From: Vicinamibacterales bacterium
GTDB taxonomy: Bacteria; Acidobacteriota; Vicinamibacteria; Vicinamibacterales; UBA2999
Direction: 5' to 3'
Length of the DNA stretch: 64,000 nucleotides
Assembly: GCA_044347565.1 (NCBI GenBank)
Contig: JBIKUN010000001.1
Span: forward strand, 22,302 to 86,301
Shown: one piece after another, positions 8,205 to 24,384 of the stretch
Layout of the letters: every line of letters starts with the position of its first letter
Position numbering within the stretch: position 1 is the stretch's first letter
The notes under the pieces: model-generated
Database searches by the model: none
Told to the model about the DNA's origin: nothing
What the model saw: the letters and a program-made list of their open reading frames with translations, nothing else
Translations under genes and position numbers: made by a program

Positions 8205-8280
8205 GGGCCCGTAGCTCAACTGGCAGAGCAGCAGACTCTTAATCTGTTGGTTGAAGGTTCGATTCCTTCCGGGCTCACCA
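8205..8280 (+). tRNA. tRNA-Lys (anticodon CTT); integration target
   Basis: Cloverleaf with acceptor GGGCCCG/CGGGCTC (one G-U pair), anticodon loop CTCTTAA, T arm GAAGG TTCGATT CCTTC, encoded CCA. Confidence 0.9.
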
Positions 8281-8953
8281 TCTTTTCATCAGCCCTCTCG
8301 GACGGCGCCAAGTACTTGAAAAGTGGTGCTGTCACGGCGGTTCGATTGAATCGATTTCCGTCGTACGCGATCCCCTCCGGAAAGAACAGCGCCTGCAGCC
8401 GCTGCTTGTAGTCGAGCGACGCCTGCACCCACAGGTCTGACGCGCGCGGCAGAATGCGTTCTGCGAACGCCAGGATGCCCTGTACGTCGAGTTCGTCGGT
8501 GGCGTCGGCGTGGTAGTCGATCTGGGCCAGCGTCAGCTCCTCGCGCAGCCGGTCGCGCTGCCGCTCGTAGCTCGTGCGATCGATCGACTGCGCGAACAGG
8601 AACGCTTCGTCGAGCCGATCGAGCTTCTGCTGGATCGCCTTCACCCGCCGGTCCTGCTCGACCGTACGGTCCTTCGCCTCGGCCCGCCGCTGCTCCCACA
8701 CGTAGAGAATCCGGTCCTTGACCAGGCGCATGTCGCCGGCAGACGGCTGCAGGAGCGCGAGTTCGTCCGCGAACGCGCCTTCGAGCGCAGCCTTGCTGAC
8801 GTTGACCGCCCGACACTGCCGCTGGCAGTGGCAGTAGGTGTTGCCGCTCACTGAAAACTGACCACCCCGCTTGGCGGCACACTGACCAGACTGCAGACCA
8901 AGGGCTGTCGCCCATCTGGCCGCATTCGGGGCCCTGAGACTCAGGGCAAGTGG
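8216..8953 (-). pseudogene. large serine recombinase remnant (zinc-ribbon and coiled-coil C-terminal part only)
   Basis: The open frame runs from the stop at ~8954. It reads GLQSGQCAAKRGGQFSVSGNTYCHCQRQCRAVNVSKAALEGAF, then IQQKLDRLDEAFLFAQSIDRTSYERQRDRLREELTLAQ and LWVQASLDYKQRLQALFFPEGIAYDG. No resolvase catalytic N-domain is present. The frame runs antisense through the tRNA before stopping. Confidence 0.7.
8236..8280 (+). repeat. att repeat A (3' 45 nt of tRNA-Lys)
   Basis: ctcttaatctgttggttgaaggttcgattccttccgggctcacca is repeated at 21710-21754. Its last 22 nt recur at 25143-25164. Confidence 0.9.
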
Positions 8954-9615
8954 TCAGTGCTCGGCGAGCAGAACCGCCCGGCTCTGGTCAGAACTCATCA
9001 ATCGCGGTGCCGCGCGGTGCGGGTCGGGCACCGACAGCGTGCGTATGTGAGCGCGTTCACGAAGCTGCGTTTGGTGGCGCTCGCGGCCATCGCCACGCCC
9101 AGTGACGCGATCACGGAGAACTACGTTCCGGGCTCCCGGCACGTACGGCGCTACGAGTCGCGGAGATCACGAAAGATCGCATCGCGCATGGAGGCTCCTG
9201 AGCGGCCCGCCATCAGGCCTCGCCGACTCCCCCATCCCGTGTCGACCATGACGCTCCTGGGCCCATCTCCTTCACCTCTCGGACATCAACCACGCCATCG
9301 GGGTCGACGGCGAGATTCTCGCGAGCGGCCAAGGTACTGCGGTAGAACGACTTACAGCGGCCCGTCGAGCGCGGCTTCAGTGATCGATTGCGCGGCAGCC
9401 GCTCATGCAGGGGGAACACTGCTCCCCAAGGTGCGTTCCCCCCTGTGTTCCCCCTGCGGCCCGAGGGCAACGCCCACTAATCACGAGGTTCACGGCGCTC
9501 AGGTCCTCGCACGCTCCATTCGCCACGCGACCGGCGTTCCATGCTCAATTGCGCCCCGGCCACCTCGCTGAGTTCGCACAGCGAAGCGTGCCGCCCACCC
9601 GGCCGTCGCCCTAGG

Positions 9616-9657
9616 GCGGATGTCCTCCTTGACACAGCGGATGTCCTCTTGGCACAG
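9616..9657 (+). repeat. tandem imperfect direct repeat (22 + 21 nt)
   Basis: gcggatgtcctccttgacacag is followed immediately by gcggatgtcctcttggcacag, inside an ORF-poor stretch. Confidence 0.8.
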
Positions 9658-9812
9658 GTCCTTCTTACCTCCTTCTTCGAATGCGCGGATCGTCGAGGCG
9701 GCAGGCGAGCATCCGTCGACGTTACGCGGGCCTGCTTGAGAGAGCGGGAGTCTAGTCCGGTTTGCTCACGCGCCAGCGCTGCTCCTGTGGCCTGCGCCGC
9801 GCCGGTGGTCAA

Positions 9813-10967
9813 TCAGTCGACCGGAAGAAACGCCCATAGCGCCGGGCGGCCGCAGTTGCAGTGCACCGCTCGTCCGAGCAGGCCGCCACCTGCGAGTCCG
9901 AGATACACAGCTGTGCGAGCGGCGTCCCACGCGCCGGGTGCCGGGCGAGCCACCGCGTGGTCACGATTCCCAACGCTTGGGATCGGGTGGAAGATCGTTT
10001 CGACCAGCGCCGGCCGCTCGGGCTCATCGTCCTGGTCGGCGTCGAGCGCGCGGGCAGTCGCCTTCGCAAGCGTCTCGGACACCCCAGCCGCGCGCACGTA
10101 CGCATCCAACTCCGCGACCCCTCGACGGCTGACTGTCGGCAGGATGAGCAGTCCGACGAAGGACCACAGCGTGAACCACAGACTGAGTTCGATCGTGCCG
10201 CCGGCGGAGCCGAGTCGGCCGGGGCCCACGATCGCAGCCGACAATCCGACGCCTGAAAGCGTGAACGCCAGCGCCAGCATTCGACCGCGTCGCCAGGTGC
10301 CGCTCGTGCCGGCCAGCTCGCGGCGGAGCCGCACGCAGGCGAGCTGTTCCGGCGTCAACGACACCTGCCACCGCGCTGGAAGCACGACTCGCCGCGGCCT
10401 CACGACGCCAAGCACGCCGCCGGTAAACCCCTCGTCGTCGCTGGCCACGGTCACATCCGGAAGTTGACCGCCCGAAGACTCGACACCCAGACGGGCCAGC
10501 GACCTGGCCACGGCCATGCGGCCCCACAACAGCAGGAATGACGCGACCGCCCCGACGGCAACGACGCCCCAGACACCTCCGACCCGACCGGCGGCAAGGA
10601 GCGCGACCAGGCTCACGCACAGCACGCAGGCATAGACCACCGCGCCGCGAAGCAGGCGCCCAAGGAATGTCCGGAGCCCCTGGCGGGACCGGCCGTACCA
10701 CACCGGTAACAGGTGCCCGCCGAACAGGTCGAAGGGCAGCTGAACGGCCGCGTGCGATATTGAATAGACGGCCAACGCCAGCGCGGCCGCTCCGACGCCT
10801 GGGCTGACCATGGCATCTACTGCAGCCGGCAGCCCGGCGGCGAGGGCGGCGGTGGTCAGCGTGACCATGGTGCCAACGCCGGAGATGCCAACCCACAGCC
10901 GTGCGCGACCGTAGCCAGGGGCGCGGCCTTCCGACGAAACATACGTTCCTGATGGTGTCGTTGACAT
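9813..10967 (-). CDS. polytopic membrane protein, M48-peptidase-like but lacking HEXXH
   Basis: 384-aa ORF with 4-5 N-terminal TM segments and the layout of an M48/HtpX-type peptidase. RRELA sits where HEXXH is expected (TPEQLACVRLRRELAGTSG), and the C-terminus reads ETIFHPIPSVGNR. It starts 5 nt downstream of the photolyase-like gene. Confidence 0.6.
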   Translation of the reverse strand: MSTTPSGTYVSSEGRAPGYGRARLWVGISGVGTMVTLTTAALAAGLPAAVDAMVSPGVGAAALALAVYSISHAAVQLPFDLFGGHLLPVWYGRSRQGLRTFLGRLLRGAVVYACVLCVSLVALLAAGRVGGVWGVVAVGAVASFLLLWGRMAVARSLARLGVESSGGQLPDVTVASDDEGFTGGVLGVVRPRRVVLPARWQVSLTPEQLACVRLRRELAGTSGTWRRGRMLALAFTLSGVGLSAAIVGPGRLGSAGGTIELSLWFTLWSFVGLLILPTVSRRGVAELDAYVRAAGVSETLAKATARALDADQDDEPERPALVETIFHPIPSVGNRDHAVARPAPGAWDAARTAVYLGLAGGGLLGRAVHCNCGRPALWAFLPVD

Positions 10968-10972
10968 CGGCT

Positions 10973-12235
10973 CTATGGTGATTCGTGAAGCGCCTGGAGG
11001 GGAACTCGTGCAGCCTCCCAGAAGGGGAAGAACCCCTTGGTCGCCAGTGGGAAGAATGCCAGGTCGTGGCCGCGGTCGGCGTAGCGAAGCGTCACGCCGG
11101 TCTTCCTGAGTTCAACGGCGAGCTCGGCCAGCGCTGCGGCGACAAACCCCATGAGCGGCCTGTAGGCCCACACCTCGTCCGCCCCGTTCGCACGGCACCA
11201 GCCGGTGACCTCGGCGGCGCTCCGGGCGTGCGTCACGATCCGTACGCGGGTGTCGGCATCGGCACACGCGCCGGCCACCCACGTGGCGACCAGCTCACCG
11301 GGCGAGTGGTGCCGCCACTTTGCGACGGCATACCGGACCGCAGGCACACGGGTCCAGTCGTCGGGTCGAGGCCCGCAGTCCTCGTCGTGCAGGAGCACCG
11401 CCCGCGGCCGCACGTCACCGGCGGCGGGTCCGAGAGCAGGCCTCACCGCAGAGGTTCGGGCGAGACCATCGTCTGGCAGCGGCCGGGCCGACTCGTCGAG
11501 CTCACCCGGCCTCGGTGACCACCGGCCGTTCGTGAACCTGGCGATGTTGTCGGCGCGGGCCAGGTAGTGCTTGCCCGGCGTCTGAAGGCCCGCCACCCAG
11601 CGCCACGACAGGGTGTTCGACGCCGGGTCGCCGTCCAGCAGATGCTCGAGAAAGAAGCGAGCGCCAAGTTCCCACGGGAGCCTCAGCGTGAAGATCCACA
11701 CGCTCGCGAACCACATCCGCACGTGATTGTGCAGGTATCCCGTGGCGGTCAGTTCCTCGCACCACGCATTGAAATACGGCAAGTCGGTGGTGCCGGATGT
11801 CGCACGGGCGACACGGTCGCTGTCGGTCTGCGGGAGCGTGTCGTCGAGCGACCGAAGCCGCGCGAGGTAGGCGTGCCAGACACCGGGACGGGCCTCGAGC
11901 CACCCTTTCCAGTAGGTCCGCCAGACGACCTCCTGCACGAACTTTTCGACCCGCTCGAACGAGCCGACCGTGCGGGCGAACGCGAGCACTTCCTCCTCCA
12001 GCACCAGCCGCCGCCGGAGATACGGGGACAGCCGACTCGTCGTCAGCCCGTCGGCGTAGTTGCGCGCGGTGCCGTATCTCCCGACAACATCAGCCAGAGC
12101 GCCGAGCCGCGTCAGGCCCGCGGTCCGCGCTGGAACGGTGGTGCCTGCGTCGGCCCGCACAGCTACGGCCCTACTGCCGTGGTCGCGGCGTCGAGGTGTC
12201 CGAGCGCGACCCAGGCGATGAACAGGTTGATGCAC
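10973..12235 (-). CDS. photolyase/cryptochrome-family protein with the FAD-binding domain at the N-terminus (inverted topology)
   Basis: Strings include LSPYLRRRLV, FVQEVVWRTYWKGWLE, WCEELTATGYLHNHVRMWFASVWIFTLRLPWELGARFFLEHLLDGDPASNTLSWRWVAGLQTPGKHYLARADNI, followed by a ~150-aa C-terminal extension. No N-terminal alpha/beta domain is present. The start is uncertain. GTG at 12160, 2 nt after the DoxX stop, is a good alternative. Confidence 0.8.
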   Translation of the reverse strand: MHQPVHRLGRARTPRRRDHGSRAVAVRADAGTTVPARTAGLTRLGALADVVGRYGTARNYADGLTTSRLSPYLRRRLVLEEEVLAFARTVGSFERVEKFVQEVVWRTYWKGWLEARPGVWHAYLARLRSLDDTLPQTDSDRVARATSGTTDLPYFNAWCEELTATGYLHNHVRMWFASVWIFTLRLPWELGARFFLEHLLDGDPASNTLSWRWVAGLQTPGKHYLARADNIARFTNGRWSPRPGELDESARPLPDDGLARTSAVRPALGPAAGDVRPRAVLLHDEDCGPRPDDWTRVPAVRYAVAKWRHHSPGELVATWVAGACADADTRVRIVTHARSAAEVTGWCRANGADEVWAYRPLMGFVAAALAELAVELRKTGVTLRYADRGHDLAFFPLATKGFFPFWEAARVPLQALHESP

Positions 12236-12537
12236 ATCAGCAACAGGGCCGGCAGTGTCTGTGCGACCGAGTCGAGCACGCGGATGCGGGTTGCCACGCC
12301 CACGAACATCATCAGCGCCAGGCCGCCCGCGCTGAACGGCACGAGGGGCAGCCAGAGTTGACCCACGATCAGGCCAAGCGCCCCGAGCACCTCGAGGGTG
12401 CCCACGAGCGTCCGGAGTCGACTGAGGCCGAATCGCTCGAAGTCACGCCGCATGCCCTCGAAGAACAGGGACGCGATGCCGTAGAACAGGAACAGCAAGG
12501 AAGACACGACGATCGATGCATAATATGGCCACGTCAC
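12163..12537 (-). CDS. DoxX-family membrane protein
   Basis: 124 aa with 4 TM segments and DoxX-like strings (LFLFYGIASLF, GLSRLRTLVGTLEVLGALGLIVG). Confidence 0.7.
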   Translation of the reverse strand: MTWPYYASIVVSSLLFLFYGIASLFFEGMRRDFERFGLSRLRTLVGTLEVLGALGLIVGQLWLPLVPFSAGGLALMMFVGVATRIRVLDSVAQTLPALLLMCINLFIAWVALGHLDAATTAVGP

Positions 12538-12567
12538 GCTTGACCGACCTTCAAGCGGCGACGACGG

Positions 12568-12582
12568 TGACCAGTCTGGTCA
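12568..12582. promoter_or_regulatory. perfect 15-bp palindrome TGACCAGtCTGGTCA between the divergent DoxX genes
   Basis: Read directly. It is centred in the 65-bp gap between starts 12537(-) and 12603(+). Confidence 0.5.
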
Positions 12583-12602
12583 GTCATGCGGGGAGCGCAT
12601 TC

Positions 12603-12977
12603 ATGGAGTGGTTGTCACTGACGAATCTGCTTCAAATCGTAGTCGGCCTGGGGCTGTTGAATGTCTGGCTGGTGCGCGGAGGTTCCTCTACATCCTATCG
12701 CGGCGGTAAGGCGCAGACGCTGCAGCAGGAGTTTGCCGCCTACGGCCTGCCCGGGTTCGCCTTCTATCTCGTGGGCGCGCTCAAGATCGGAGCCGCCGTC
12801 GTGCTGCTGGCCGGCGTGTGGATGGCACTTCCGGTGCGGGAGGCAGCGGCCCTCGTGGCTGCGCTCATGATTGGCGCGATTGCCATGCACGTGAAGGTCA
12901 GCGATCCGTTGATGAAGTCGCTTCCCGCCGTGCTGATGCTGGCGATGAGCGCCGCGATCGTCGCCCTGCGCTCGTAG
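12603..12977 (+). CDS. DoxX-family membrane protein
   Basis: MEWLSLTNLLQIVVGLGLLNVWLVR..., 4 TM segments, LKIGAAVVLLAG. The internal Met (codon 30 of track ORF 12516..12977) was chosen as start. Confidence 0.7.
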   Translation: MEWLSLTNLLQIVVGLGLLNVWLVRGGSSTSYRGGKAQTLQQEFAAYGLPGFAFYLVGALKIGAAVVLLAGVWMALPVREAAALVAALMIGAIAMHVKVSDPLMKSLPAVLMLAMSAAIVALRS

Positions 12978-13014
12978 CCCCTGGTCAGAGATACGTTGCC
13001 GAGGTCGCGAGGCC

Positions 13015-13668
13015 TCACCATCCACTCGTGCCGGGGTCTCCCTTGAAGGGACCAACGAGTTCCGGCGTGATCCAGCCGCCGTAGAACCCGCCCGCCTGCC
13101 CCTTGATCCTCACCGCGTCCACGTAGTAATCGCTCCGGGCGGGGTAGAACGAGAGATGGGCGCGGAGGGCTTCGAAGGCCGGCAAAGGCTCGTCGTACGA
13201 CCAACCCACCGCATTCAGCACCATCGGCGCGGCACGCACGGTCCGGTATCTCGCCGTGCCTTTCCACTCGCAGACGGACGACCCCGGCGCGGGCTGCAGG
13301 TATTCGAGCGTGACGTCGGCACGCGGGATGTACACGGTGGGGGGGCTCGCCGTCTCGAGTACCCGAAGGGCGCGGCGCGTGCGCGCCACTTCCACGTCTC
13401 CGACGCGGACGACGATCTGTCTGGGCTCAGCGCCGATGCTTGGAGGCCGCGGGTAGTCCCAGACGGACTCCTGCCCGGGCGCTGGCGCCACGGCAAACGG
13501 CGGACGCACCTGCCCGTAGTAGCGCCAGCCCCCGGGCGTCGGCCCCGGGCGAGTTGGTGACGGGTGGCTGGCCACACTCGTATTGACGGCGAGGCCGCCC
13601 TCGAGGGTCCGGGACGGACGCTCGTTGGCCGGGACGTGGCCCACCCGCCGAGTATGATTGCGGCGCAC
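13015..13668 (-). CDS. DUF427 domain protein
   Basis: ESVWDYPRPP, VARTRRALRVLETASPPTVYIPRADV, SVCEWKGTARY, VGWSYDEPLPAFEALRAHLSFYP. The start is probably internal, because the full ORF overlaps the LOV gene start. Confidence 0.7.
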   Translation of the reverse strand: MRRNHTRRVGHVPANERPSRTLEGGLAVNTSVASHPSPTRPGPTPGGWRYYGQVRPPFAVAPAPGQESVWDYPRPPSIGAEPRQIVVRVGDVEVARTRRALRVLETASPPTVYIPRADVTLEYLQPAPGSSVCEWKGTARYRTVRAAPMVLNAVGWSYDEPLPAFEALRAHLSFYPARSDYYVDAVRIKGQAGGFYGGWITPELVGPFKGDPGTSGW

Positions 13669-14910
13669 CCCGAGGATGCGCGCGTGTCAGCAGAGCCCTC
13701 TCAACAGAACGCGAAGTCGTCGGCCGCCGCTCGCCTTCAGGAACGAGCGCCGGCGGATCAGCTCGCCCTGAAAGATCGTGCGCTCGACGTGGCGGCTGAG
13801 GGCATCACCATTGCAGACGCGCGGTTGCCCGACCGGCCCCTCATCTACGCGAACGAGGGCTTCGAGCACATGACGGGCTACTCCGTGGCGGAGGTGCTGG
13901 GCAGGAACTGCCGGTTCCTGCAGGGCCCCGGTTCCGATCCGGCCGCGGTGGCAGAAATCCGCGCCGCCGTCGCCGGGGAACGCGAGTGCATCGTCGAGAT
14001 CCTGAACTACCGCCGTGACGGCACGACGTTCTGGAATCGGCTCTCGATCACGCCGGTTCGCGACGACCTCGGCGAGGTGACCCATTACATCGGCATCCAG
14101 TCGGACGTCAGCGCCCGTCGCGAGGCCGAGCAGGGACTGCGTCGCGCCAAGGAAGTGCTCGAGCACGATCTCGAGCTAGCGGCGCGGGTTCAGCAGGCCC
14201 TGCTCCCGCCGGTGGAATCGCATCTGGGTGGATTGCGTATCGCGCGCGCGTTCCACCCCTGCACGGGCCTGGCTGGTGACGCGGTGGGTGTCGTGGCCTT
14301 CCCGCGCGGCCAGGTGGGCCTCTACCTGCTGGACGTGAGCGGGCACGGAGTAGGGGCGGCCCTTCTGTCGTTCACCTTGAACCACCTGCTGTCGTCATCG
14401 GTCGAGGGCGAGCTCCTCATCGAGGAGACGGACGACGGACTTGGAGTCGTTCCGCCATCGCGCGTGGCAGAGCGGCTCAACCGGCAGTTCCCGATGGAGC
14501 GAACGCGTCAGTACTTCACGATGGTGTACGGGGTGTTCGACGCATCGCGCGGGCGATTCCACTACGTGATGGCGGGTCACCCCGCGCCGATCCTCCTGCC
14601 CAGGACGGGGCCGCCAGCGCCGCTGCCCGGCAGCGGCCTGCCGATCGGCATGATCGAGCATGCGGCCTACGACGACGAGACCGTCATCCTCCACCCCGGG
14701 GATCGGCTCTACTTCTACACCGACGGGGTCGTCGAAGCGCTGGACGCGTCGGAGCAGGAGTTCGGTCACGAGCGTTTGATGGCGGAGATCGAACGGCAGC
14801 GGAACCGCCCGTTGCGGGCAGGGCTCGATATCGTCGCCGACCTGGTCCGGGACTGGTCGGAAGGCCACCTAAGAGACGACGTGTCGCTGCTTGCGATCGA
14901 GAGGATTTGA
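13654..14910 (+). CDS. LOV (blue-light PAS) domain fused to a PP2C/SpoIIE-type phosphatase
   Basis: LOV signature: IYANEGFEHMTGYSVAEVLGRNCRFLQGPGSD, with the adduct Cys codon at 13909-13911, then NYRRDGTTFWNRLSITPVRDD..HYIGIQSDVS. SpoIIE/PP2C strings follow: LAGDAVGVVAF, LYLLDVSGHGVGAALLS, YFYTDGVVEA. Confidence 0.85.
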   Translation: MIAAHPEDARVSAEPSQQNAKSSAAARLQERAPADQLALKDRALDVAAEGITIADARLPDRPLIYANEGFEHMTGYSVAEVLGRNCRFLQGPGSDPAAVAEIRAAVAGERECIVEILNYRRDGTTFWNRLSITPVRDDLGEVTHYIGIQSDVSARREAEQGLRRAKEVLEHDLELAARVQQALLPPVESHLGGLRIARAFHPCTGLAGDAVGVVAFPRGQVGLYLLDVSGHGVGAALLSFTLNHLLSSSVEGELLIEETDDGLGVVPPSRVAERLNRQFPMERTRQYFTMVYGVFDASRGRFHYVMAGHPAPILLPRTGPPAPLPGSGLPIGMIEHAAYDDETVILHPGDRLYFYTDGVVEALDASEQEFGHERLMAEIERQRNRPLRAGLDIVADLVRDWSEGHLRDDVSLLAIERI

Positions 14911-15124
14911 GAGCGTGACCGGCTGAGCGGGTGCCGCGCTCGGTGACAGACCCGGCGTGATCCAGCCCGGCCTTAGAGACTCACCTGCGATCGTGCGGCC
15001 TCCAGTGCACCTGACATCGTCAGTGCCGCGTCCAACCCAGAGAAAAGTCGATCCCCCGGCGCCCGTTCATCCGCCGATGTTCCTGCGTGGGCTCGCTGCA
15101 GTTCACATTCTGGGAGGTTCGGTT

Positions 15125-15895
15125 ATGGTACGTTCGCGCGTCGCGTCGGCACTGGTCCTCACTCTCATGCCCTCCGCGGCAATGGCTCAGACCAGCAAGA
15201 CGCTGGAGTCGGGTGATTTCGTCGGCATTTCGTTCTGGCTCATCTCCATGGCCCTCGTGGCCGCCACGGCGTTCTTCTTTCTCGAGACCCAGCGGGTCGC
15301 CGGCAAGTGGAAAACGTCGCTCACCGTCTCCGGTCTCGTCACCCTGGTGGCAGCCACTCACTACTTCTACATGCGCGACGTCTGGATCGCGACTGGCAGC
15401 ACGCCCACGGTGTATCGCTACATCGACTGGCTCATCACGGTGCCGCTGCTCATCACGGAGTTCCATCTGATTCTGGCTGCGATCGGCAAAGCCTCCCCTG
15501 GCATCTTCTGGCGTCTCATTGGCAGCACGACGGGCATGCTGGTCGCGGGTTATCTGGGTGAGGCCGGTTACGTCAACGTCTGGCCGGCTTTCATCGTGAG
15601 CATGGCGTTCTGGTTCGTCGTGCTCTACGAAATCTTCGCCGGCGAGGCCTCCAAGGCAGCCACGACCAACGCCCCGGCCTCGGTTCAGTCGGCCTTCAAG
15701 GCGATGCGTCTCATCGTCACGTTCGGCTGGGCGGTGTATCCCATCGGCTACTTCGTCGGTTACCTGACGGGCGGTGACCCTGCCGACAGCATGGGCATGC
15801 TCAACATCGTCTACAACTTCGCCGACGTGGTGAACAAGATTGCCTTCGGCGTCATCATCTGGTCGGTGGCCGTCACCGAGACTGAACGCGGGTAA
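15125..15895 (+). CDS. proteorhodopsin-type light-driven proton pump (DTE motif, Leu105: green-tuned)
   Basis: 256 aa. Signal peptide MVRSRVASALVLTLMPSAAMAQ, then WKTSLTVSGLVTLVAATHYFYMRDVW. RYIDWLITVPLLITEF gives Asp, Thr and Glu at the PR 97/101/108 positions and Leu at 105. The Schiff-base Lys lies in YNFADVVNKIAFGVIIW. GGGAGG lies 7 nt upstream. Confidence 0.92.
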   Translation: MVRSRVASALVLTLMPSAAMAQTSKTLESGDFVGISFWLISMALVAATAFFFLETQRVAGKWKTSLTVSGLVTLVAATHYFYMRDVWIATGSTPTVYRYIDWLITVPLLITEFHLILAAIGKASPGIFWRLIGSTTGMLVAGYLGEAGYVNVWPAFIVSMAFWFVVLYEIFAGEASKAATTNAPASVQSAFKAMRLIVTFGWAVYPIGYFVGYLTGGDPADSMGMLNIVYNFADVVNKIAFGVIIWSVAVTETERG

Positions 15896-15907
15896 AGCGA
15901 TCACGCG

Positions 15908-15943
15908 GGCAGGCACCCGGGCCAGTGGGCCTTGGTGCCTGCC
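15908..15943 (+). other. GC-rich stem-loop between opsin and blh
   Basis: ggcaggcacc (15908-15917) pairs perfectly with ggtgcctgcc (15934-15943). An inner GGCC/GGCC pairing is possible. No U-tract follows. The blh SD GGAGG (15951-15955) follows directly and can pair with CCTCC at 15942-15946, which shares c15942-15943 with the right arm of the main stem. Confidence 0.5.
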
Positions 15944-15960
15944 TCCTCCAGGAGGCTCGC

Positions 15961-16860
15961 ATGACGCGTCCGCTGAGGTGGCAAAGTGCGCTCTTTCTCC
16001 TGGCGAGTCTCGGCGCCTCCGCACTGGCGTTGGGGGGACTTCGCTTCGACCCTCGCACCGAGTTACTCGTATCGACGGTGCTGATCGGTTTGCTGGGCAT
16101 CCCGCACGGCGCTATTGACCCACTGCTGGCCGCGGCAGTCTACGACCTTCGTCGCCCGACCGACTGGTGCTGGTTCGGCGCCAGTTATGTGGCAGTCGCC
16201 CTGGCAGTCGTGCTGGTGTGGCTGTTCGCACCGATGCTGTTTCTCGCCGGATTCCTCCTCGTGTCCATCGTCCATTTCTCCGAGGACCTGGCACCCGGCG
16301 TCTCCTGGGTCTCGCGCGTGGCATATGGGGCGTCGGTCGTGGTCCTGCCGACCGTGCGGTACGCTTCGGAGACCGGCCGACTACTGGGGCTGGTCGCCGG
16401 CGCAGACGCCGCGGCCCCGGTTGTCGCGGTGCTCGCGGCCGTCGCGGGGCCGTTGATGGCGGTGGCGATCTGGCGGGCGCTGGTCGAAGGGGTGCGCAAC
16501 ACGCAGGTGGGACTCGAGTTGGCGGCCGTCGTTCTGCTGTCGGTCTGTGCACCCCCGCTCATCAGCTTCACGGTGTTCTTCTGCGTGATGCACAGCCTGC
16601 GTCATCTGATTCGAGCGGCGCAAACGCAGGCCGACCGGCCGGGCCGGTCGCTGGTGTACGCCGCGGCGTGGCCCATGGCCGGCACCGTCGGCGCAGCGGT
16701 CTTGGGATGGGCACTGCTGGGGAGCCAGTCGCTCGACCAGGCCATGATGCAGCTGGTCTTCGTCGGTCTCGCCGCGCTCACCGTGCCGCACATGGTTCTC
16801 GTCGAAGCCGCGACTCGGGCTGGCTGGCCCCGCATGGCACCCGCGTTCGAGCAGGCCTGA
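15961..16860 (+). CDS. blh: Brp/Blh-family beta-carotene 15,15'-dioxygenase (retinal synthase)
   Basis: Polytopic ~299-aa protein with the family's spaced histidines (GIPHGAIDP, IVHFSED, CVMHSLRHL, LTVPHMV). It lies directly downstream of the opsin. Confidence 0.85.
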   Translation: MTRPLRWQSALFLLASLGASALALGGLRFDPRTELLVSTVLIGLLGIPHGAIDPLLAAAVYDLRRPTDWCWFGASYVAVALAVVLVWLFAPMLFLAGFLLVSIVHFSEDLAPGVSWVSRVAYGASVVVLPTVRYASETGRLLGLVAGADAAAPVVAVLAAVAGPLMAVAIWRALVEGVRNTQVGLELAAVVLLSVCAPPLISFTVFFCVMHSLRHLIRAAQTQADRPGRSLVYAAAWPMAGTVGAAVLGWALLGSQSLDQAMMQLVFVGLAALTVPHMVLVEAATRAGWPRMAPAFEQA

Positions 16861-16883
16861 TACGAGGTCCCCGCTAGCGTCGC

Positions 16884-16902
16884 AGCGCGCGCCCCGCGCG
16901 CT
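16884..16902 (+). terminator. short GC hairpin just after blh (possible terminator; no U-tract)
   Basis: agcgcgc-gcccc-gcgcgct: 7-bp stem with a 5-nt loop, 24 nt after the blh stop. Confidence 0.25.
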
Positions 16903-16928
16903 CACCCGTCATCTCCTTCTCGGGGAGC

Positions 16929-17230
16929 GTGCGCGATGAGCCTGGCAACGCAGTGCTCGACACGACGGTGGTCGTGTTCCCCGACGACGAGGTGCAGTGG
17001 CCGTATCAATCGCGCTACATTCGCCCGGCGCGTCCAGACACCTCGGGCCGATTCGAGATCGCGGGCTTGCCGGCCGGTGGTCCGACCGCGTCCTGGCGCT
17101 GCAGGGGCTCGAAGACGGCCAAGCGACCGACCCGGCGTTCCTCGCGACGCTGCGCGATCGCAGCGAGCGACTCACTCTGGGCGAGGGCGGGGCGAAGTCA
17201 CTGTTGGCGAGCGCCGAGGGGCCGCGCTGT
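16929..17230 (+). pseudogene. frameshifted C-terminal remnant of a CarboxypepD_reg-type (TonB-receptor-associated) protein
   Basis: Frame 1 reads VVVFPDDEVQWPYQSRYIRPARPDTSGRFEIAGLPAGG. It continues in another frame as RVLALQGLEDGQATDPAFLATLRDRSERLTLGEGGAKSL. No N-terminal part is present. Confidence 0.5.
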
Positions 17231-17622
17231 GCGGACTCGCTGAAGCTCAGTGCGGGGTCGCAGGGCCCGTTCTGCGCCGAGCCGGTGCTCGTTCCGTCTG
17301 GCGATCATCAGATCCTGGCTTTCCGCGTCGTTCGCCACGCCAGCGATGTCACGCGCGTGCGCCGCGTCGCTCACGAGTTTGCCGTGAGCGGCGATGAGGG
17401 CCTGAACGTAGTGCTCTTGTGCCAACGGCGACTCGAATTCCGTCATCTGCGCCACGTGAGCGAGCGTGCCAAGGCCCCCGATGGCGTACGCGTCGAGCGC
17501 CCGAATCCGTTCCACTGCGCCAGGTGAGTCAGCGAGAGCAGGGCGTAGGAATCAGCGAGTACTTGGTTCAGGCCGCGCGTGAGTGCAGCCGTGTCGGTTG
17601 AAGCAGCGTCAATGGCCATCAT
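17198..17622 (-). pseudogene. Dps/ferritin-like protein remnant (internal deletion plus frameshift)
   Basis: The N-terminal piece [37 protein letters not shown] (from 17622) breaks frame near 17515. It resumes as ERIRALDAYAIGGLGTLAHVAQMTEF ... DAESQDLMIARRNEH. The expected segment between the HW motif and the ERIRALGG helix is missing. Confidence 0.55.
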
Positions 17623-17916
17623 GTCCTCGCTCTCGGGATGACCGTCGGGCGTGGCCGCCTACATCGCGTCGGCATAAGCCTGCGGGCAGCCGAAAGCGCC
17701 TCGGTTCCCACTTCTCCACCTCTTGGGACGCACGCTACGACCGCGAGGATGCCGGCACGCAACCGATACCCATCCGCGCCTCGCAGCCTGTCCAGCAACG
17801 GTTCGGTCGTGGACCTGAGCCGGCACACCGGGCGCCATACGCTCGGATGGCGGACGTTGCTGCCATCACACATCCGCTTTCCAGCTGTCGTTCACATACG
17901 ACAAAGAGAGATAGAC

Positions 17917-18354
17917 ATGGCCATGACTGCGACGACCGTGGCCGCGCCAACGGCCGATATCGTCGACACCGCCGTTGCTGCCGGCACGTTCAGCACCCTG
18001 GCGACGGCTCTGACAGCCGCGGGGTTGGTCGACACGTTGAATGGCGCTGGGCCCTTCACGGTGTTCGCGCCGACAAACAACGCGTTTGCGAAGATCCCGG
18101 CGGACGATTTGAAGGCACTGCTGGCGGACAACGCTGCGCTGACGAAGGTGCTGACCTACCACGTTGTGGCAGGCAAGGTCATGGCGGCCGACGTCGTGAC
18201 GATGAAGGAGGCGCAGTCGGTTCAGGGCAGCATGATCGCCATCGATACGACTGCGGGCGTCAAGGTCAACAACGCGACGGTCACGGCGACCGATATCGTG
18301 GCAACCAATGGCGTCATCCACGTGATCGATACCGTGATCATGCCGAAGGCCTGA
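17917..18354 (+). CDS. fasciclin (FAS1) domain protein, no obvious signal peptide
   Basis: [57 protein letters not shown] ... [10 protein letters not shown] ... [13 protein letters not shown]. Confidence 0.85.
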
Positions 18355-18668
18355 CTCGTGGACTCCGGAACGGCGCGGGCGACGAACCCGCGCCGTCCCC
18401 ACACCTCGGCTTGGGAGCCAGATGCGCGCGACGGGACTCGGTGTGGCGTGGTCGTTCGTATCACCGTCAACGATCGCCTCGTCGATATGCTTCCGGCGTT
18501 GATCCTGATGTTCGCCGACGGCTACATCTTGGTGGCGTCGCAGCCGGCGACCTGAACGGGCGTCAGATCACGCGGCCGCCAGTGGGACCAATCCGGCGAC
18601 CGAGGGCGTCTTACGGGACACGAAGTCCGACGCGCCGGTCCGCGCGACTGTATCGAAAGATCCTCACC

Positions 18669-18836
18669 GTGTTTCATCGCAGCGATGCCGTCTTTCTTGT
18701 GGCCGCCTTCCTGTCATTCGTGTTCTCGGTGTACCTCTGGTTCAGCGGGCAGCGCGACGAAGGCATGTTCGTGGGCATCTGGGTGCCGTCGATCCTGTCG
18801 TTCGCGACGCTGACGGCCCAGGCGAGGAAGCGCTGA
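18669..18836 (+). CDS. small two-TM membrane protein (55 aa, GTG start)
   Basis: VFHRSDAVFLVAAFLSFVFSVYLWFSGQRDEGMFVGIWVPSILSFATLTAQARKR. Its stop overlaps the next ATG (cTGATG). Confidence 0.4.
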   Translation: MFHRSDAVFLVAAFLSFVFSVYLWFSGQRDEGMFVGIWVPSILSFATLTAQARKR

Positions 18837-18970
18837 TGTCCGCCATGACGATTCTCGCGGTCGGGCTCTTCGTGACCGCTCTGTGCGGGTTCGGGTTGTG
18901 GTTCACGATCGTCGAGATCCGCCGGCTCTCGAGCCGCGCCCCGAGCGATGAGCCGGGACGACCTGCGTGA
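18836..18970 (+). CDS. small single-TM membrane protein (44 aa; below the ORF-track cutoff)
   Basis: [44 protein letters not shown]. It is coupled to the upstream small ORF and overlaps the SDR start. Confidence 0.4.
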   Translation: MSAMTILAVGLFVTALCGFGLWFTIVEIRRLSSRAPSDEPGRPA

Positions 18971-19718
18971 TTCGACCTTCGTCGTGGTTGCGGCGGCAAG
19001 CAGCGTGGCCGTGCGCGTGGCGCAGATGCTGGCTGCGCGAGGCGCGCGCCTGGTGCTGGCAGGCCGCGATGCCGCCGTGCTCGCTCCGCTCGCCGCAGAC
19101 GTCGGCGGCCGCGTGGTGACAGCCGACGCCACCCGCTTCTCAGACCTTGAGCGCTGCGTCGGCGACGCCGCGGCCACGACCGGCCGCCTGGACGGCATCG
19201 TCAACTGCGCCGGCTCGATTCTTCTGAAGTCCGCGCACCTCACCTCTGAACAGGAGTTGCAGGACGTGCTCTCGGCCAATCTCGTCTCGGCGTTTGCCAC
19301 CGTGCGCGCCGCGTCGAACGTGATGCGGCCGTCTGGCGGCTCGATCGTGCTGATGAGCTCGGCGGCCGCCGCCATCGGTCTGCCCAACCACGAGGCGATC
19401 GCCGCCGCGAAGGCCGGCGTGTCGGGGCTGATGCGTTCGGCGGCGGCGACCTACGCGCCCTATGGCATTCGCGTGAACGCTGTGGCTCCCGGTCTCGTCG
19501 ACACTCCGATGAGTCGCCCGATCACGTCGAACGATCTCGCGCGCAAGGCATCGGTGGCCATGCATCCGCTTGGCCGGCTCGGCACGCCTGACGACATCGC
19601 CGAGGCCGTATGCTGGCTGCTCGGCCCGCAAAGCTCCTGGGTCACGGGCCAGGTCATCGGCGTTGATGGCGGGCTGGCCACATTGAAGACCCGCAGCAAG
19701 ACAGAGAGCCGCTCCTGA
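18948..19718 (+). CDS. SDR-fold protein with degenerate cofactor and catalytic motifs
   Basis: The SDR core is present ([29 protein letters not shown]). The TGxxxGxG position reads VAAASSVA. The YxxxK position reads IAAAK (Tyr replaced by Ile). Confidence 0.7.
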
Positions 19719-19854
19719 CGACGTGAACACGCCTCCGCGTCGGGATCCGTCACTCGGACCGCGACGTCCTACCTACGTAGGCACGATGGTGCGAACGGAA
19801 CGCACCCTCGCACATCGTGACGATTCACAGCAGTGTTTCAGAGGGTATATCGAC

Positions 19855-20346
19855 ATGCAGATACTCAAGACTCTCGTGTGCGGCGCCGTCGTGGCGACCA
19901 TGGCTCTGTCGGCGGGAACGACCGTTCGTGCACAGGGCAAGGACATTGTTGACACGGCCGTGGCGGCCGGACAGTTCAAGACGCTCGCGGCGGCCCTGAC
20001 CGCGGCCGGCCTCGTGCCGACGCTGAAGGGTGCCGGGCCGTTCACGGTGTTCGCGCCGACCGACGAGGCGTTCGCGAAGCTGCCGAAAGGTACGGTCGAA
20101 GACCTGTTGAAGCCCGAGAACAAGGCCAAGCTCACCGCGATCCTCACGTATCACGTGGTCGCTGGCAAGGTGATGGCAGCCGACGTCGTGAAACTGACCT
20201 CTGCCAAGACCGTGCAGGGCGGATCGGCCAAGGTCTCGACGATGGGCGGCGGCGTGATGATCGATGCATCGCACGTCACGAAGACGGATATCGTGACGTC
20301 GAACGGCGTGATTCACGTGATCGACACGGTGATGATGCCGAAGTAG
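19855..20346 (+). CDS. secreted fasciclin (FAS1) domain protein
   Basis: [28 protein letters not shown] (signal peptide), then [44 protein letters not shown] ... [14 protein letters not shown]. Confidence 0.88.
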
Positions 20347-20472
20347 CGGCATCGACGGAGATGCATCGAGGGGTCCTACCGGAGCGTCCGGCGGCCCCTC
20401 GATCTGTGTACGCGTCCCGTGCACTGCCCGTACGACCGGGAGCACGGCAGAGATCCGCCGCGGTTACCTCGC

Positions 20473-21195
20473 TCATCCCGTGCGAGGCCCGTGGATGACA
20501 CCAGCCGCCCGGGCTTGCCACGCCGCCGCGTGCTCGCGGTGGTCGGCCATCACCGCCTGTGGCAGCTTCTTCGGCGCCGCAAGCGGCACCGCCATTCGGA
20601 CGTTGGCCGCGAAGCGCGCGCGATGACGCTCCAGGAAGTTCCAGTAGAGATGGTTTAGGGGACACGCCGCCGCTCCGCTCGTCGTGGCGGGATCGAACTG
20701 GCAGCCCGCGCATAGACTCGGCCCCAGCCGCTGGATGTACTTTCCCGACGACACGTGGGGCTTGCTGCCCACGATGCCGCCGTCAGCCCACGTTGCCATG
20801 CCGGCCACATTGGGTGCGACCACCCACTCGTAGGCATCCACGTACATTTCCCAGAACCAACGATAGAGCGCTTGCGGGTCGACACCGAGCAGCGTCGCGA
20901 TGTTCGACAGTGCCATCAGCCGCTGGATGTGGTGGCTGTAGCCGCGTGCGACCAGCTGTGCGACGGCGGTGTCGAGACAGTGGATGCCCGAGAGCTCGCC
21001 CCAGTAACACGAAGGCAGCGGCAGGTCTGCGGCGAGCGCGTTGGACACTCCGAACGTCATCACGGCGATGCGCACGGTCGTTGCCGCCTGAATTTTCGTG
21101 GACGTCCAGGACCTGCTCTGCGGCGGCGACGGCACGACGTGCCGGCTCTTCACGCCGGACGGCGCCCTCCTGTCGTACGATGGCGCGCATCTCAC
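20473..21195 (-). pseudogene. C-terminal half of an FeS-cluster (6-4) photolyase / CryB-PhrB-type protein; N-terminal half missing
   Basis: Family-like sequence starts only around LPLPSCYWGE. It continues GYSHHIQRLMALSNIATLLGVDP, WFWEMYVDAYEWVVAPNVAGMATWADGG, SGKYIQRLGPSLCAGCQFDPATTSGAAACPLNHLYWNFLERH. The C-x2-C-x12-C spacing is as in the FeS-BCP class. The first ~45 residues of the ORF look unrelated. Confidence 0.65.
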
Positions 21196-21659: not shown

Positions 21660-23099
21660 TCATTCAGTAAATCGCGACCTGCGACGTCGTGCGATGGCTC
21701 TTCCGACGTCTCTTGATCTGTTGGTTGAAGGTTCGATTCCTTCCGGGCTCACCACTCCAACTGGAGGCGCATTAACGGTTTCCGCGTCGAGCGCGTCATC
21801 GACGTCGTACGCCCCAACCGCGCCGTGTGGCACTGGTGTGGCACTGGAGCAAGAATCCCCCTCGCGCACCATGGGCGGCGTGCGTTCGCTTGCCGCCTGC
21901 GAGTCCTCCAGCAGGCGCAACGCGCGCTCCAAGCGCATCGCCGTGGAACGCAGGTAGCGCGACGTCGTCGTGAGGTTGGTGTGACCGAGGAAGTCACGCA
22001 CGTCGTGCAACTCGGCGCGCGACTCCAGCAGCCGGCATGCGAACTCGCGGCGCAGGTCGTGGAAGTGCAGGTCAACAGCGCCGGCCTTCTCGCACGCGGT
22101 GCGCCACGTGGTCTTGATCGACGCGATCGGCCCGCCCACCTCGTCGCCGAACACATAGGCGTCCGGCGGTAGCACCTCACCCTCTGGGTCAGTCCGCAAC
22201 ATCTCGAGCACGGCGGCCAGGCGCTGCCCCACCGGAACGACCCGCAGCGTGCCCGTCTTGGTCTTCCCCGCGCGCAGCACCAGTGCCCGCGCACGGCCGC
22301 CGGCGTCGCACTGCACGTCGCGCCACTGCAACGACAGCAGTTCACCAAGTCGGCACCCCGTCGACAGTGCCGCGATCAGCAGGCCGCGCAGGTGCGGCGT
22401 GGCCACCGTCATGAGCGCGTCTTCTTCGCCTGGCAGCAGCCGGCGGGTGCGCACGGTTTCGGCGGCGCCGTCGAGCCGCACGACGTTCACGCCGTGCCGC
22501 TTGAACGGTGTGTCGTCCCGGTAGCCCTGCGCAATCGCCCAGTTGAACAGATGGCGCACGCGGGCCTTGAATCGGTTGAGGCCGACATGGCCGCCCTTGG
22601 TGCTGCGTCCGGCAAGTGTGGCGGACGTCAGCAGGTCCGCAGGCACGTCGCGCTGCTCGGCCCGCACCCTCGCAACCTGCCGTGCCGCGGCGAGCGCCTC
22701 GTTCACGGCGTCGAGGCGCGCGTGGATCTCGAACTGGCGCACGGCATGCGGCTTCCGTGTGTCACGCCGCGCGTAGTCGCGCAGGTAACGTTCCGCCACG
22801 TTCGCCAACGTGGGCTCAACGACTGTCTGCGTGCAGACCTCGGGGAGCGCGAACGCACCGGCACGCACCTCCGTCCGAATGCGATCGGCGAGCGCCTGCG
22901 CTTCACTGCGCGACATCACGTCGCCGGCCGGCCGATCCGCGAAGCGATGGAGACTCACGCGGTGGCGCACTTTGCTACCCGCGACGTCCTTGCCATGACA
23001 GAAGGCGAAGTGCCATGGGTGCGTGCACTTCGTCCACAGTCGCGGCGTACAGCCGCACCGCTTCGAGAGCCCATCCTGACGTCGCATGGTTGAAGTCAA
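21660..23099 (-). CDS. int: tyrosine-type site-specific integrase
   Basis: 479-aa ORF with LSTGCRLGELLSLQWRDV, catalytic region HFHDLRREFACRLLE, and LGHTNLTTTSRYL. The last ~30 codons read antisense through att repeat B. Confidence 0.9.
   Translation of the reverse strand: MTSTMRRQDGLSKRCGCTPRLWTKCTHPWHFAFCHGKDVAGSKVRHRVSLHRFADRPAGDVMSRSEAQALADRIRTEVRAGAFALPEVCTQTVVEPTLANVAERYLRDYARRDTRKPHAVRQFEIHARLDAVNEALAAARQVARVRAEQRDVPADLLTSATLAGRSTKGGHVGLNRFKARVRHLFNWAIAQGYRDDTPFKRHGVNVVRLDGAAETVRTRRLLPGEEDALMTVATPHLRGLLIAALSTGCRLGELLSLQWRDVQCDAGGRARALVLRAGKTKTGTLRVVPVGQRLAAVLEMLRTDPEGEVLPPDAYVFGDEVGGPIASIKTTWRTACEKAGAVDLHFHDLRREFACRLLESRAELHDVRDFLGHTNLTTTSRYLRSTAMRLERALRLLEDSQAASERTPPMVREGDSCSSATPVPHGAVGAYDVDDALDAETVNAPPVGVVSPEGIEPSTNRSRDVGRAIARRRRSRFTE
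21710..21754 (+). repeat. att repeat B (copy of the tRNA-Lys 3' 45 nt, one mismatch)
   Basis: ctcttgatctgttggttgaaggttcgattccttccgggctcacca, aligned by eye to 8236-8280. Confidence 0.9.
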
Positions 23100-23128
23100 A
23101 AGTGCGTCGGTGAGCTTGCCCCGGTTTC

Positions 23129-23440
23129 GTGGACATCTTCCGAAAGGTGGATACGATGTCCCGCATGGAAAGCAGCAAGCCCGCCCGACGCCTCCGTCGG
23201 CGGTTCACGGACGAGTTCAAGGCCGGCGCGATTCGGCTCGTCGTGGATGAAGGCCAGACCATCGGCGCCGTCGCCCGCGACCTCGATCTGACGGCCTCGT
23301 CGCTCGCCGAGTGAGTCAAGCGGGCGCAGGCGGACCGGACCAAGGGCCACACGGGCTTGACGACGGTGGAGCGCGAGCAACTGGCACAGCTCCGCCGCGA
23401 CAATCGCGAGTTGCGCCTGGAGCGCGACATCCCACAACAA
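23129..23440 (+). pseudogene. IS3-family transposase orfA remnant (in-frame TGA, truncated)
   Basis: RRFTDEFKAGAIRLVVDEGQTIGAVARDLDLTASSLAE, then TGA(23312-23314), then VKRAQADRTKGHTGLTTVEREQLAQLRRDNRELRLERDI. No orfB or inverted repeats were seen. Confidence 0.7.
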
Positions 23441-23587
23441 GATGAACTTGCTCGCGGCGGTGCGGATTCTCGATGTTCCTGGGGCTCACGGGCACTGACG
23501 CCCGAAGGGCCGCGAGCCTGGAAACCGAGCCGCCTTGACGCACGCCAGGCCAGGTGTTACTTTCGTGACACCTTCGGAGATGAGCGC

Positions 23588-24165: not shown

Positions 24166-24384
24166 TTGCCGACCGGGTGGTGCAGAGAAGCGCGGCCGCA
24201 AAGCTGAGCCGCGGCGAGGGTTGCCGGTCGCGGTGCGCGAGGACGCGGCGCGCTGGTGCGGTCACCACGTTCGGCGGAGGGCTTCGCGGGTGACGTCGTT
24301 CTCGAGCAGCGAGTCCGCCAGCCGCTTCTTCAAAGGCGTCTTCTGCTCCGCTTTCCGACGCTCGCCAGCTCGTATGACGCAGTC

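Follow-up and report, generated by a model that had tools for sequence, protein, structure and literature searches.

Genomic islands integrated at tRNA genes are known to occur in tandem arrays that grow by accretion and include CIME-type elements without an integrase. Genes for life in sunlight have been reported from several other settings. In Sphingomonas glacialis AAP5, an operon with NAD(P)-binding and fasciclin genes lies beside the xanthorhodopsin operon and is induced by light together with it, and a LOV-HTH gene on the other side of the xanthorhodopsin operon is the proposed regulator (Kopejtka et al., 2022; PMC9897461). In nitrifiers of the Great Lakes, horizontally acquired proteorhodopsin (PR) modules were found, together with a pair of photolyases, one FeS-BCP and one 'FAD-domain-only', and a region combining an integrase with a photolyase (PMC9239080). 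Furthermore, the NewPHL photolyases were defined by an N-terminal catalytic domain, by intact residues for repairing cyclobutane pyrimidine dimers (CPDs) as well as by a C-terminal Z-domain carrying both a GFF motif and a conserved Trp (PMC7736829); these enzymes repair CPDs in single-stranded DNA (Emmerich et al., 2020; PMC7736829). LOV-SpoIIE phosphatases form a recognised class of LOV architecture (PMC4844311). Rhodopsin phototrophy in Acidobacteriota has so far been described mainly from a different, low-GC lineage (PMC11561045). Herein, a window of 64,000 nucleotides from a Vicinamibacterales bacterium (the whole stretch of DNA that was analysed; contig JBIKUN010000001.1, positions 22,302 to 86,301) is shown to harbour a 13.4-kb cluster of ~15 genes, the light island, in which all the light genes considered here are located. 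Our reading, to which a probability of roughly 0.65 is given, is that of an island of the large-serine-recombinase type that inserted into the 3' end of tRNA-Lys(CTT), has since decayed, and carries a mosaic 'sunlight kit'.

The borders of the island are defined by the following features:

8205-8280, plus strand: tRNA-Lys(CTT), called by ARAGORN and by Rfam (tRNA, 70.9 bits); its last 45 nt (8236-8280) are attL
8219-8890, minus strand: 3' remnant of a large serine recombinase gene, matching residues 313-531 in a protein of 531 aa
8281-21709, to 21754 with the right repeat: the light island
8891-9669, no strand: stretch of ~0.8 kb lacking any supported gene, between the recombinase remnant and the block shared with contig L107
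21710-21754, plus strand: displaced 3' part of tRNA-Lys, serving as attR of the island and as left end of the next element

The two tRNA-derived segments form a 45-nt direct repeat (8236-8280 and 21710-21754, 44/45 identical) that brackets exactly the gene cluster and the recombinase remnant. Three contigs from sister species (L229, L230 and L231; L numbers denote the loci used for comparison) share the left flank at 78-90% nucleotide identity, 78-87% in the case of L229, with genes for LigD, a TonB receptor, transaldolase, PGI, an aminotransferase and SNase. In L229, the complete tRNA-Lys joins directly to the sequence that follows the island's right repeat (16034-16295 of L229 corresponds to window 21710-21971, 91%), and on this alignment L229 reads as the 'no island' state. 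L230 carries a full-length serine recombinase element with other cargo after tRNA-Lys, and L231 ends at the end of the tRNA. In addition, the median G+C content at third codon positions (GC3) was 0.83 for the island genes (range 0.78-0.88) and 0.91 for the flanking genes (Mann-Whitney p=7e-6). The repeats, the recombinase remnant, the empty state of L229 and the lower GC3 therefore identify the island as a genuine insertion at an integration hotspot, in agreement with a preliminary description of this DNA that had placed the light genes on a tRNA-integrated element.

The recombinase remnant retains the zinc-ribbon end and the coiled coil and has lost the Resolvase catalytic domain, and its last codons are antisense to tRNA-Lys. 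When the recombinase of L155 (531 aa, with Resolvase, Recombinase and Zn_ribbon_recom domains) was searched against the window by tblastn, 79% identity over 224 aa was obtained, and residues 1-312 gave no match anywhere in the window; an intact serine recombinase with Resolvase, Recombinase and zinc ribbon is absent from the island. The mobile element of the preliminary description is thus real, but its own recombinase is truncated, and the intact integrase nearby belongs to a tandem neighbour, element B. A looser tRNA pattern recovered 120 loci, mostly from unrelated organisms, and exposed the serine recombinase family to which the remnant belongs: full-length relatives (531 aa, 82-90% identical) stand beside tRNA-Lys(CTT) on soil, freshwater and wastewater contigs, at least eight in number (L129, L148, L155, L175, L191, L193, L219 and L230), and the cargo behind them is unrelated to that of the light island. 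The final ~20 codons of these full-length genes are antisense to the 3' end of tRNA-Lys. The tRNA-Lys(CTT) gene serves widely as an integration hotspot, and both serine and tyrosine recombinase elements make use of it. A third copy of the tRNA-end repeat, 24-27 nt long, lies at 25141-25168; with three copies present, two elements therefore stand in tandem downstream of tRNA-Lys. Within the 0.8-kb stretch, an open reading frame (ORF) at 8957-9571 had no Pfam or NCBIfam match, and no gene was called there in metagenome contigs; 8891-9669 is likely a rearrangement scar, at whose end (9670) the homology to L107 also stops.

The window has a GC content of ~70%, and gene calling guided by GC3 yields densely packed genes. 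The nearest named relatives of its PGI gene (2597-4237) come from Vicinamibacterales and 'Acidobacteria bacterium' metagenome-assembled genomes (MAGs), with 76-92% identity. Proteins identical to those of the region are encoded on >20 metagenome contigs (JGI, ENA, NCBI). The same searches also returned several related MAGs whose sample names are of the Lake Mendota style and whose accessions fall into the same JGI range. The host therefore belongs to the Vicinamibacterales (Acidobacteriota) of the freshwater plankton. Acidiparvus (UBA12189) was considered as source lineage and rejected, being a member of Holophagaceae with 44-49% GC.

The cargo behind the scar consists of the following genes:

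9813-10967, minus strand: multi-pass membrane protein with hydrophobic segments; weak Peptidase_M48_N-like Pfam match (5.8e-06), just under the cut-off
10973-12160, minus strand (the 420-aa ORF extends to 12235): predicted photolyase of the NewPHL class, with its FAD catalytic domain at the N-terminus and an alpha/beta Z-domain at the C-terminus
12163-12537, minus strand: DoxX_2 membrane protein a (Pfam 9.3e-12), 96% identical in L106
12516-12977, plus strand: DoxX_2 membrane protein b (Pfam 1.9e-08), divergent, 91% identical in L106
13015-13644, minus strand: DUF427 (Pfam NTP_transf_9) protein (2.5e-27), also in the L107 block
13654-14910, plus strand: LOV-PP2C protein, SpoIIE-type (PAS_9 2.9e-21; PF07228 1.2e-43)
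15125-15895, plus strand: green-type proteorhodopsin (Bac_rhodopsin PF01036 9e-48) with DTE motif, L105 and signal peptide
15961-16860, plus strand: Blh, beta-carotene 15,15'-dioxygenase (Pfam BCD 1.2e-39, profile 1-264 of 267)
16997-17527, plus strand: 176-aa ORF of uncertain coding status, called in all metagenome contigs
17638-18354, plus strand, gene called from 17917: fasciclin-domain protein 1 (Pfam 2.4e-40)
18948-19718, plus strand: short-chain dehydrogenase/reductase, SDR (Pfam adh_short_C2 6e-62)
19723-20346, plus strand, gene called from 19855: fasciclin-domain protein 2 (Pfam 1.7e-39), signal-like N-terminus
20473-21195, minus strand, homologous part 20596-21045: FeS-BCP (6-4) photolyase pseudogene fragment, C-terminal third

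Domain searches supported all five light-related items that had been recognised before (the photolyase-like gene, LOV-PP2C, PR, blh and the FeS-BCP), each at its original position, and Pfam likewise recovered the two DoxX, the DUF427 and the two fasciclin genes, with the SDR confirmed as well. The predicted cargo would therefore combine light-energy capture by PR and Blh, blue-light sensing by LOV-PP2C and UV repair by NewPHL, much as had been proposed.

Against the green PR structures PDB 7b03 and 2l6x, the island PR aligned over residues 27-254 (E=5e-80). The equivalents of H75, D97, T101, L105, E108 and K231 are conserved, with RYIDWLITVPLLITEF, HY and VNKI in register in the 7b03 alignment, and the protein is predicted to be a green-absorbing DTE proton pump. 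Its closest species-level relative (89% identical; L010, an Acidobacteria MAG) has blh alone beside PR, with housekeeping genes around. The four histidines of Blh are present in PHG, VHF and MHSLRH motifs. The 176-aa ORF that follows Blh had no match in Pfam or NCBIfam.

In the LOV-PP2C protein, the SpoIIE/PP2C domain is complete (profile 2-191 of 192) and shows DVSGHG, TDG and DDVS motifs. NCBIfam matches to LOV kinases and YtvA cover the LOV part with E values of 1e-44 to 1e-46. The LOV motif GRNCRFLQG contains the adduct cysteine, and LNYRRDGTTFWN and IGIQSDVS carry the flavin-contacting Asn/Asn/Gln; on these motifs, 13654-14910 is a predicted blue-light phosphatase. Orthologs with 75-89% identity are abundant across Vicinamibacteria. 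Those on three long contigs have unrelated surroundings and no link to PR, and one of the ortholog contigs (L104) has a full FeS-BCP gene nearby. A tRNA-Gly(GCC) called by ARAGORN at 13879-13952 was rejected as a false positive: it lies inside the LOV coding sequence, is not found by Rfam and recurs in the L107 ortholog (964-1037).

The photolyase gene at 10973-12235 belongs to a large family of ~400-aa proteins in which FAD_binding_7 is the sole domain; in the ORF itself this Pfam model matches residues 99-225 only, and the best PDB matches are class I CPD photolyases, in their catalytic half (residues ~205-395). An N-terminal antenna domain is lacking, so that the FAD catalytic domain comes first. 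In an AlphaFold model built with 46 homologs (pLDDT 94.9), residues 12-209 are helical and residues 255-393 form a five-stranded alpha/beta domain. When this model was compared with the PDB by Foldseek, solved photolyases matched in the catalytic half only and no solved structure with the NewPHL domain order was found, so the fold assignment of the Z-domain rests on the secondary structure of the model. The residues used to recognise CPD repair (equivalents of E. coli E274 and N341, a Met and a Trp pair; PMC7736829) correspond to E77, W80, N145, M149, W186 and W188, which are invariant in 46 family members, with their register seen in the 1tez alignment. The C-terminus reads 'KGFFPFWE', with G376 and F378 invariant and W381 at least 90% conserved. 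By its match to the published family features, the gene is assigned to the NewPHL class. The 'inverted-topology photolyase-like' gene noted earlier was thus correct in its topology, but its class had already been described (PMC7736829).

The NewPHL gene is part of an operon in which DoxX_2 protein a comes first, its stop 3 nt from the NewPHL start, and the membrane-protein gene comes last. The latter directly follows NewPHL in L102, L106, L107 and L108 as well (79-90% identity). NewPHL is translationally coupled to the upstream DoxX and to the downstream multi-pass membrane protein of 351-384 aa, and the pairing of NewPHL with this membrane protein is conserved in these four other contexts; a soluble DNA photolyase here shares an operon with membrane proteins. 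A NewPHL paralog, 45% identical to the island copy, is found in the core genome (40472-41689, plus strand), where it follows DUF2147 (39012-39542) and SDR (39539-40345) genes adjoined by a divergent TetR gene (38424-38996). This locus may represent a resident light- or stress-regulated operon.

The FeS-BCP fragment aligns only to residues ~332-480 of a 512-aa FeS-BCP, and stop codons lie upstream. Its four cluster cysteines (HCLD, LCAGC, ACPL) are retained, in register with the L104 homolog. No remnant of the N-terminal (DPRP) part was found anywhere in the window. Because of the partial alignment, the upstream stops and the missing N-terminal remnant, the item is interpreted as a dead pseudogene stub; what had been called the C-terminal half is indeed C-terminal and carries the cluster cysteines, but amounts to a dead third. 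Between fasciclin 1 and the SDR (18448-18970), two to three tiny ORFs of 35-55 aa are consistently called in metagenome contigs, and the two that were translated (55 and 44 aa) each contain one hydrophobic helix.

The distribution of these genes elsewhere was followed in the 80 closest PR loci of species-representative genomes and in the orthologous photolyase loci. Among the 80 PR loci, blh is present in 52, usually ~5 kb downstream of PR. The contig L107 matches window 9670-14494 at 91% nucleotide identity in a different context, with LOV-PP2C, DUF427, both DoxX genes, NewPHL and the membrane protein. The NewPHL block is nested: NewPHL stands alone in L098-101 and L232-234, is joined by the membrane protein in L102 and L108, by both DoxX genes in L106, and by DUF427 and LOV-PP2C in L107, and its flanks differ at every locus. 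The linkage of LOV-PP2C, DUF427, DoxX and photolyase genes that the preliminary description had put forward for checking is therefore real in L107, but in other genomes the LOV-PP2C orthologs do not adjoin PR. NewPHL orthologs with 78-83% identity were never found near PR and stand by themselves or in the vicinity of other photolyase genes or genes of the singlet-oxygen type; a NewPHL of 43% identity lies 1.1 kb from PR in one Verrucomicrobiota genome. In MAGs of Aquabacterium and other Burkholderiales, PR has fasciclin genes immediately upstream and in the same orientation (L013 9393-10792, L031 3283-4687 and, with two tandem copies, L052 8754-10690), and a Methylophilaceae MAG shows the order blh-SDR-fasciclin (L020 15460-18755; SDR 44% identical). 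Together with the published Sphingomonas locus, these loci suggest that fasciclin, with or without SDR, is a recurring companion of rhodopsins across phyla. Since the full set was seen nowhere else and its sub-modules recur in differing contexts, the cargo, as judged from these alignments, is a mosaic of at least three modules rather than one unit travelling intact. Two further loci were observed in the course of this comparison. In L102 (Acidobacterium sp. Baikal-G1, NSIL01000017; 4778-16171), NewPHL lies among genes for amine oxidase/DUF1365/CFA synthase, PNPOx, DUF2256, DUF4130 with radical SAM, and a PPDK-like protein. In L116 (a Lake Tanganyika contig, 56% GC; 314-5393), tRNA-Lys is accompanied by genes for PNPOx, a PPDK-like protein, a class I photolyase and a short PAS protein. 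Light-response clusters may also include PNPOx and PPDK-like genes.

To the right of the light island, and outside it, lies element B:

21755-25168, no strand: element B, with tyrosine integrase, HTH, 176-aa ORF, ParE and RHH-PIN genes, ending in the tRNA-end repeat
21660-23099, minus strand: its tyrosine integrase, intact (Pfam Phage_integrase 1.4e-23; NCBIfam Xer-like)

PIN_3 and RHH matches were obtained from Pfam for element B, and its ORF at 23357-23887 had no Pfam or NCBIfam match. The integrase ORF runs across the displaced tRNA segment and continues for ~50 nt inside the light island; the junction thus created its last ~35 codons, which are preceded by the catalytic residues. Beyond element B, at 25159-25356, the 3' end of an S8 peptidase gene (25174-27513, minus strand) holds eight tandem 18-nt units that encode a hexapeptide repeat at the subtilase C-terminus. 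An 84-kb metagenome contig differs in length by 18 nt over the aligned stretch that holds this array, so members of the population may differ in the number of repeats.

Among the closest described systems is that of S. glacialis AAP5, where a LOV gene likewise stands by a rhodopsin/retinal operon with a fasciclin operon adjacent, in an organism of lake surface water. In AAP5, the LOV protein belongs to the EL222-like transcription factors of the LOV-HTH type, whereas that of the island is a predicted LOV-PP2C phosphatase that would act through other proteins; the AAP5 pump is a xanthorhodopsin, that of the island a green-type proteorhodopsin. Furthermore, the AAP5 locus lacks the NewPHL/DoxX/DUF427 block and the photolyase remnant, has not been reported as an integrative element and belongs to a different phylum. 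The earlier view that the combination is undescribed consequently holds for the full set, which was seen nowhere else, but not for the arrangement of LOV, rhodopsin and fasciclin genes, which was published for AAP5 (PMC9897461). The same study provides precedent for the fasciclin and SDR genes, the former of which had been listed as being of unclear role, as light-induced neighbours of a rhodopsin operon (PMC9897461). The PR-blh pair resembles laterally transferred PR-blh cassettes (with or without crtEIBY) such as that of Great Lakes Nitrosospira, in which a DTE and L105 PR is paired with a retinal-forming dioxygenase in a strain-specific region (PMC9239080), and its relatives, at ~70% identity, are spread across phyla. 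It differs from such cassettes in that no crt genes stand between PR and blh, and in that PR and blh here form part of a larger group of light genes carried by a tRNA-integrated element. As in the NewPHL enzymes of PMC7736829, the island photolyase has no antenna domain, a catalytic domain in first position, the CPD-repair residues Glu/Asn/Met/Trp, and a Z-domain with GFF and Trp. Relative to these, its Z-domain is somewhat longer (~185 aa vs ~150), and the gene, whose activity is predicted, shares an operon with DoxX and a multi-pass membrane protein.

A further likeness is to the singlet-oxygen response of Rhodobacter sphaeroides. The RpoE-ChrR regulon of this bacterium also includes the photolyase gene phrA. 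A published table names the fasciclin RSP_1409, the SDR RSP_1087 and a cyclopropane-fatty-acid-synthesis protein among the singlet-oxygen-responsive genes (PMC7074977), and work cited in PMC10949492 implicates a fasciclin protein in photo-oxidative stress in Azospirillum. The Baikal-G1 NewPHL ortholog lies beside amine-oxidase/DUF1365/CFA-synthase genes of the type found in this regulon. In contrast to the RpoE-ChrR system, the island has no ECF sigma/anti-sigma pair, and the R. sphaeroides regulon is scattered on the chromosome rather than gathered in a mobile cluster. With regard to tandem tRNA arrays, the locus shows the same layout of a full tRNA followed by two elements split by partial tRNA repeats, one of them without a working recombinase; here, the island and element B use different recombinase classes, serine and tyrosine, at one tRNA. 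Mobilisation of the island in trans by the integrase of element B is doubtful because of this difference in class.

In the history that we favour, the island would have landed upstream of an older, small tyrosine-integrase element and then decayed, losing the catalytic domain of its recombinase and having its FeS-BCP gene cut to a stub. Its cargo would comprise a first module of DoxX and the DoxX-NewPHL-membrane protein operon with DUF427 and LOV-PP2C, a second formed by the PR-blh pair, and a third of fasciclin-SDR-fasciclin. Whereas the insertion with its borders, the identities of the genes and the recurrence of modules are shown by the present analysis, we infer every biochemical activity of these products, and all of their regulation, including co-regulation through LOV-PP2C, as follows. 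Given beta-carotene from the host, PR with retinal made by Blh would pump protons in green light and provide supplementary energy, and NewPHL would use blue light to repair cyclobutane dimers in single-stranded DNA. The fasciclin, SDR and DoxX proteins may defend the envelope against photo-oxidative stress. In blue light, LOV-PP2C would dephosphorylate a partner-switching protein of the host and thereby activate a sigma factor of the stress or ECF type; the island genes, too, may be driven by it.

Several observations weigh against this reading of an inserted sunlight kit, or narrow it. The five light items include one pseudogene. The complete combination was found in this one freshwater Vicinamibacterales population only and in 0 of the 80 related PR loci, so that the whole set, whose co-transfer and recurrent linkage the preliminary description had proposed to examine, behaves as a mosaic of modules rather than as a co-transferred unit; the cargo may also have been assembled after integration instead of being delivered together. 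No carotenoid (crt) genes occur in the window, and neither STAS/anti-sigma (RsbV/RsbW-type) partners nor a sigma factor occur in the island; STAS/anti-sigma partner genes were also absent among the other window genes scanned and may be encoded in another part of the host genome. Because carotenoid, RsbV/RsbW and sigma genes are missing from the island, PR function and LOV-PP2C signalling would depend on host genes outside it. By inspection only, no shared promoter or operator motif was evident upstream of island genes. An excised form in the same population was sought with the exact empty-site pattern, in which the tRNA end meets the native right flank (after the complete tRNA-Lys, the excised junction would read ...GGGCTCACCA joined to CTCCAACTGG), and gave 0 hits in metagenomes. 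Same-population contigs retrieved through the left-flank SNase gene included none without the island. L229 belongs to a different species, in which a deletion is formally possible. Finally, mobility at the present day is unlikely given the truncated recombinase. In the population, the island is present on all contigs that extend past tRNA-Lys, and it has probably become fixed and immobile. As for L229, insertion is favoured over a deletion by the repeat and the recombinase remnant.

These points bear unequally on the other explanations. It could be that unrelated fragments, including light genes common in surface-water bacteria, simply piled up at the tRNA-Lys hotspot through a series of insertions and deletions, with no coordination among genes that would act independently or have no function at all, and this unlikely account would explain the pseudogenes at both ends (the truncated recombinase and the truncated FeS-BCP), the gene-less scar of ~0.8 kb, the different neighbours of the modules in every other genome, the differences at this locus among L229, L230 and L231, and the lack, on inspection, of a common upstream motif. 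It does not, however, explain why four intact light genes plus fasciclin and SDR among ~15 genes show so strong a functional bias; four to five light genes in that number appear far above random placement, as a judgement and not as a computed statistic. Uncoordinated accretion is further opposed by the independent, co-regulated arrangement of LOV, rhodopsin and NAD(P)-binding/fasciclin genes in Sphingomonas, by the recurrence of fasciclin-PR adjacency in Burkholderiales and Methylophilaceae, by the uniform GC3 of the cargo (0.78-0.88), and by the presence of the island in every population contig reading past tRNA-Lys, which suggests retention. At the other extreme, a serine-recombinase element could have delivered LOV-PP2C, PR/Blh, NewPHL and fasciclin/SDR/DoxX in one step, as a 'photo-adaptation cassette' for sensing, energy capture, photorepair of single-stranded DNA and envelope defence, wired through LOV-PP2C into the partner-switching sigma network of the host, which let a lineage of the mainly soil-dwelling Vicinamibacterales live in sunlit lake water. 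We consider this version distinctly unlikely.

A native chromosomal light regulon, that is, an ancestral cluster beside which small elements landed and which sister genomes deleted, is very unlikely. The spread of LOV-PP2C orthologs (75-89%) does resemble that of the housekeeping PGI (76-92%), a NewPHL paralog resides in the core genome, and no empty site was found in the population; yet the 45-nt repeat brackets exactly the cluster with the recombinase remnant, the tRNA of L229 joins precisely to the sequence after the right repeat, all cluster genes fall below the flanking genes in GC3, and the block from LOV to NewPHL occurs in unrelated contexts, in L106 and L107. The window does come from metagenome-type data, and the contigs L094, L095 and L231 break at the tRNA, as would be expected had mis-assembly joined light genes of different organisms. 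Such a chimera is hardly credible, and is in practice ruled out because the sequence recurs at 99.9% identity in >20 independent contigs: 20.8 kb of the window (5125-25913) is co-linear, at that identity, with the 84-kb metagenome contig, and pieces of it occur in contigs from independent samples and assemblers. The decayed serine-recombinase island with a mosaic cargo thus remains the preferred reading.

Every component class of the island is already known, no new mechanism has been demonstrated, and the combination is neat rather than unprecedented. Its value lies in showing that in Acidobacteriota a single integrative element can carry a whole set of sunlight functions, with borders that are defined and a sister genome for comparison. 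The island ties together what had been reported separately, namely PR modules and photolyase pairs, both acquired horizontally, and LOV, fasciclin and NAD(P)-binding genes beside rhodopsins. It also offers testable candidates: a LOV-PP2C that awaits characterisation, the operon in which NewPHL is joined by membrane proteins, and fasciclin and SDR as recurring rhodopsin companions. If the one-step cassette were true, fasciclin and SDR would be general, so far unrecognised accessories of rhodopsin phototrophy across phyla.

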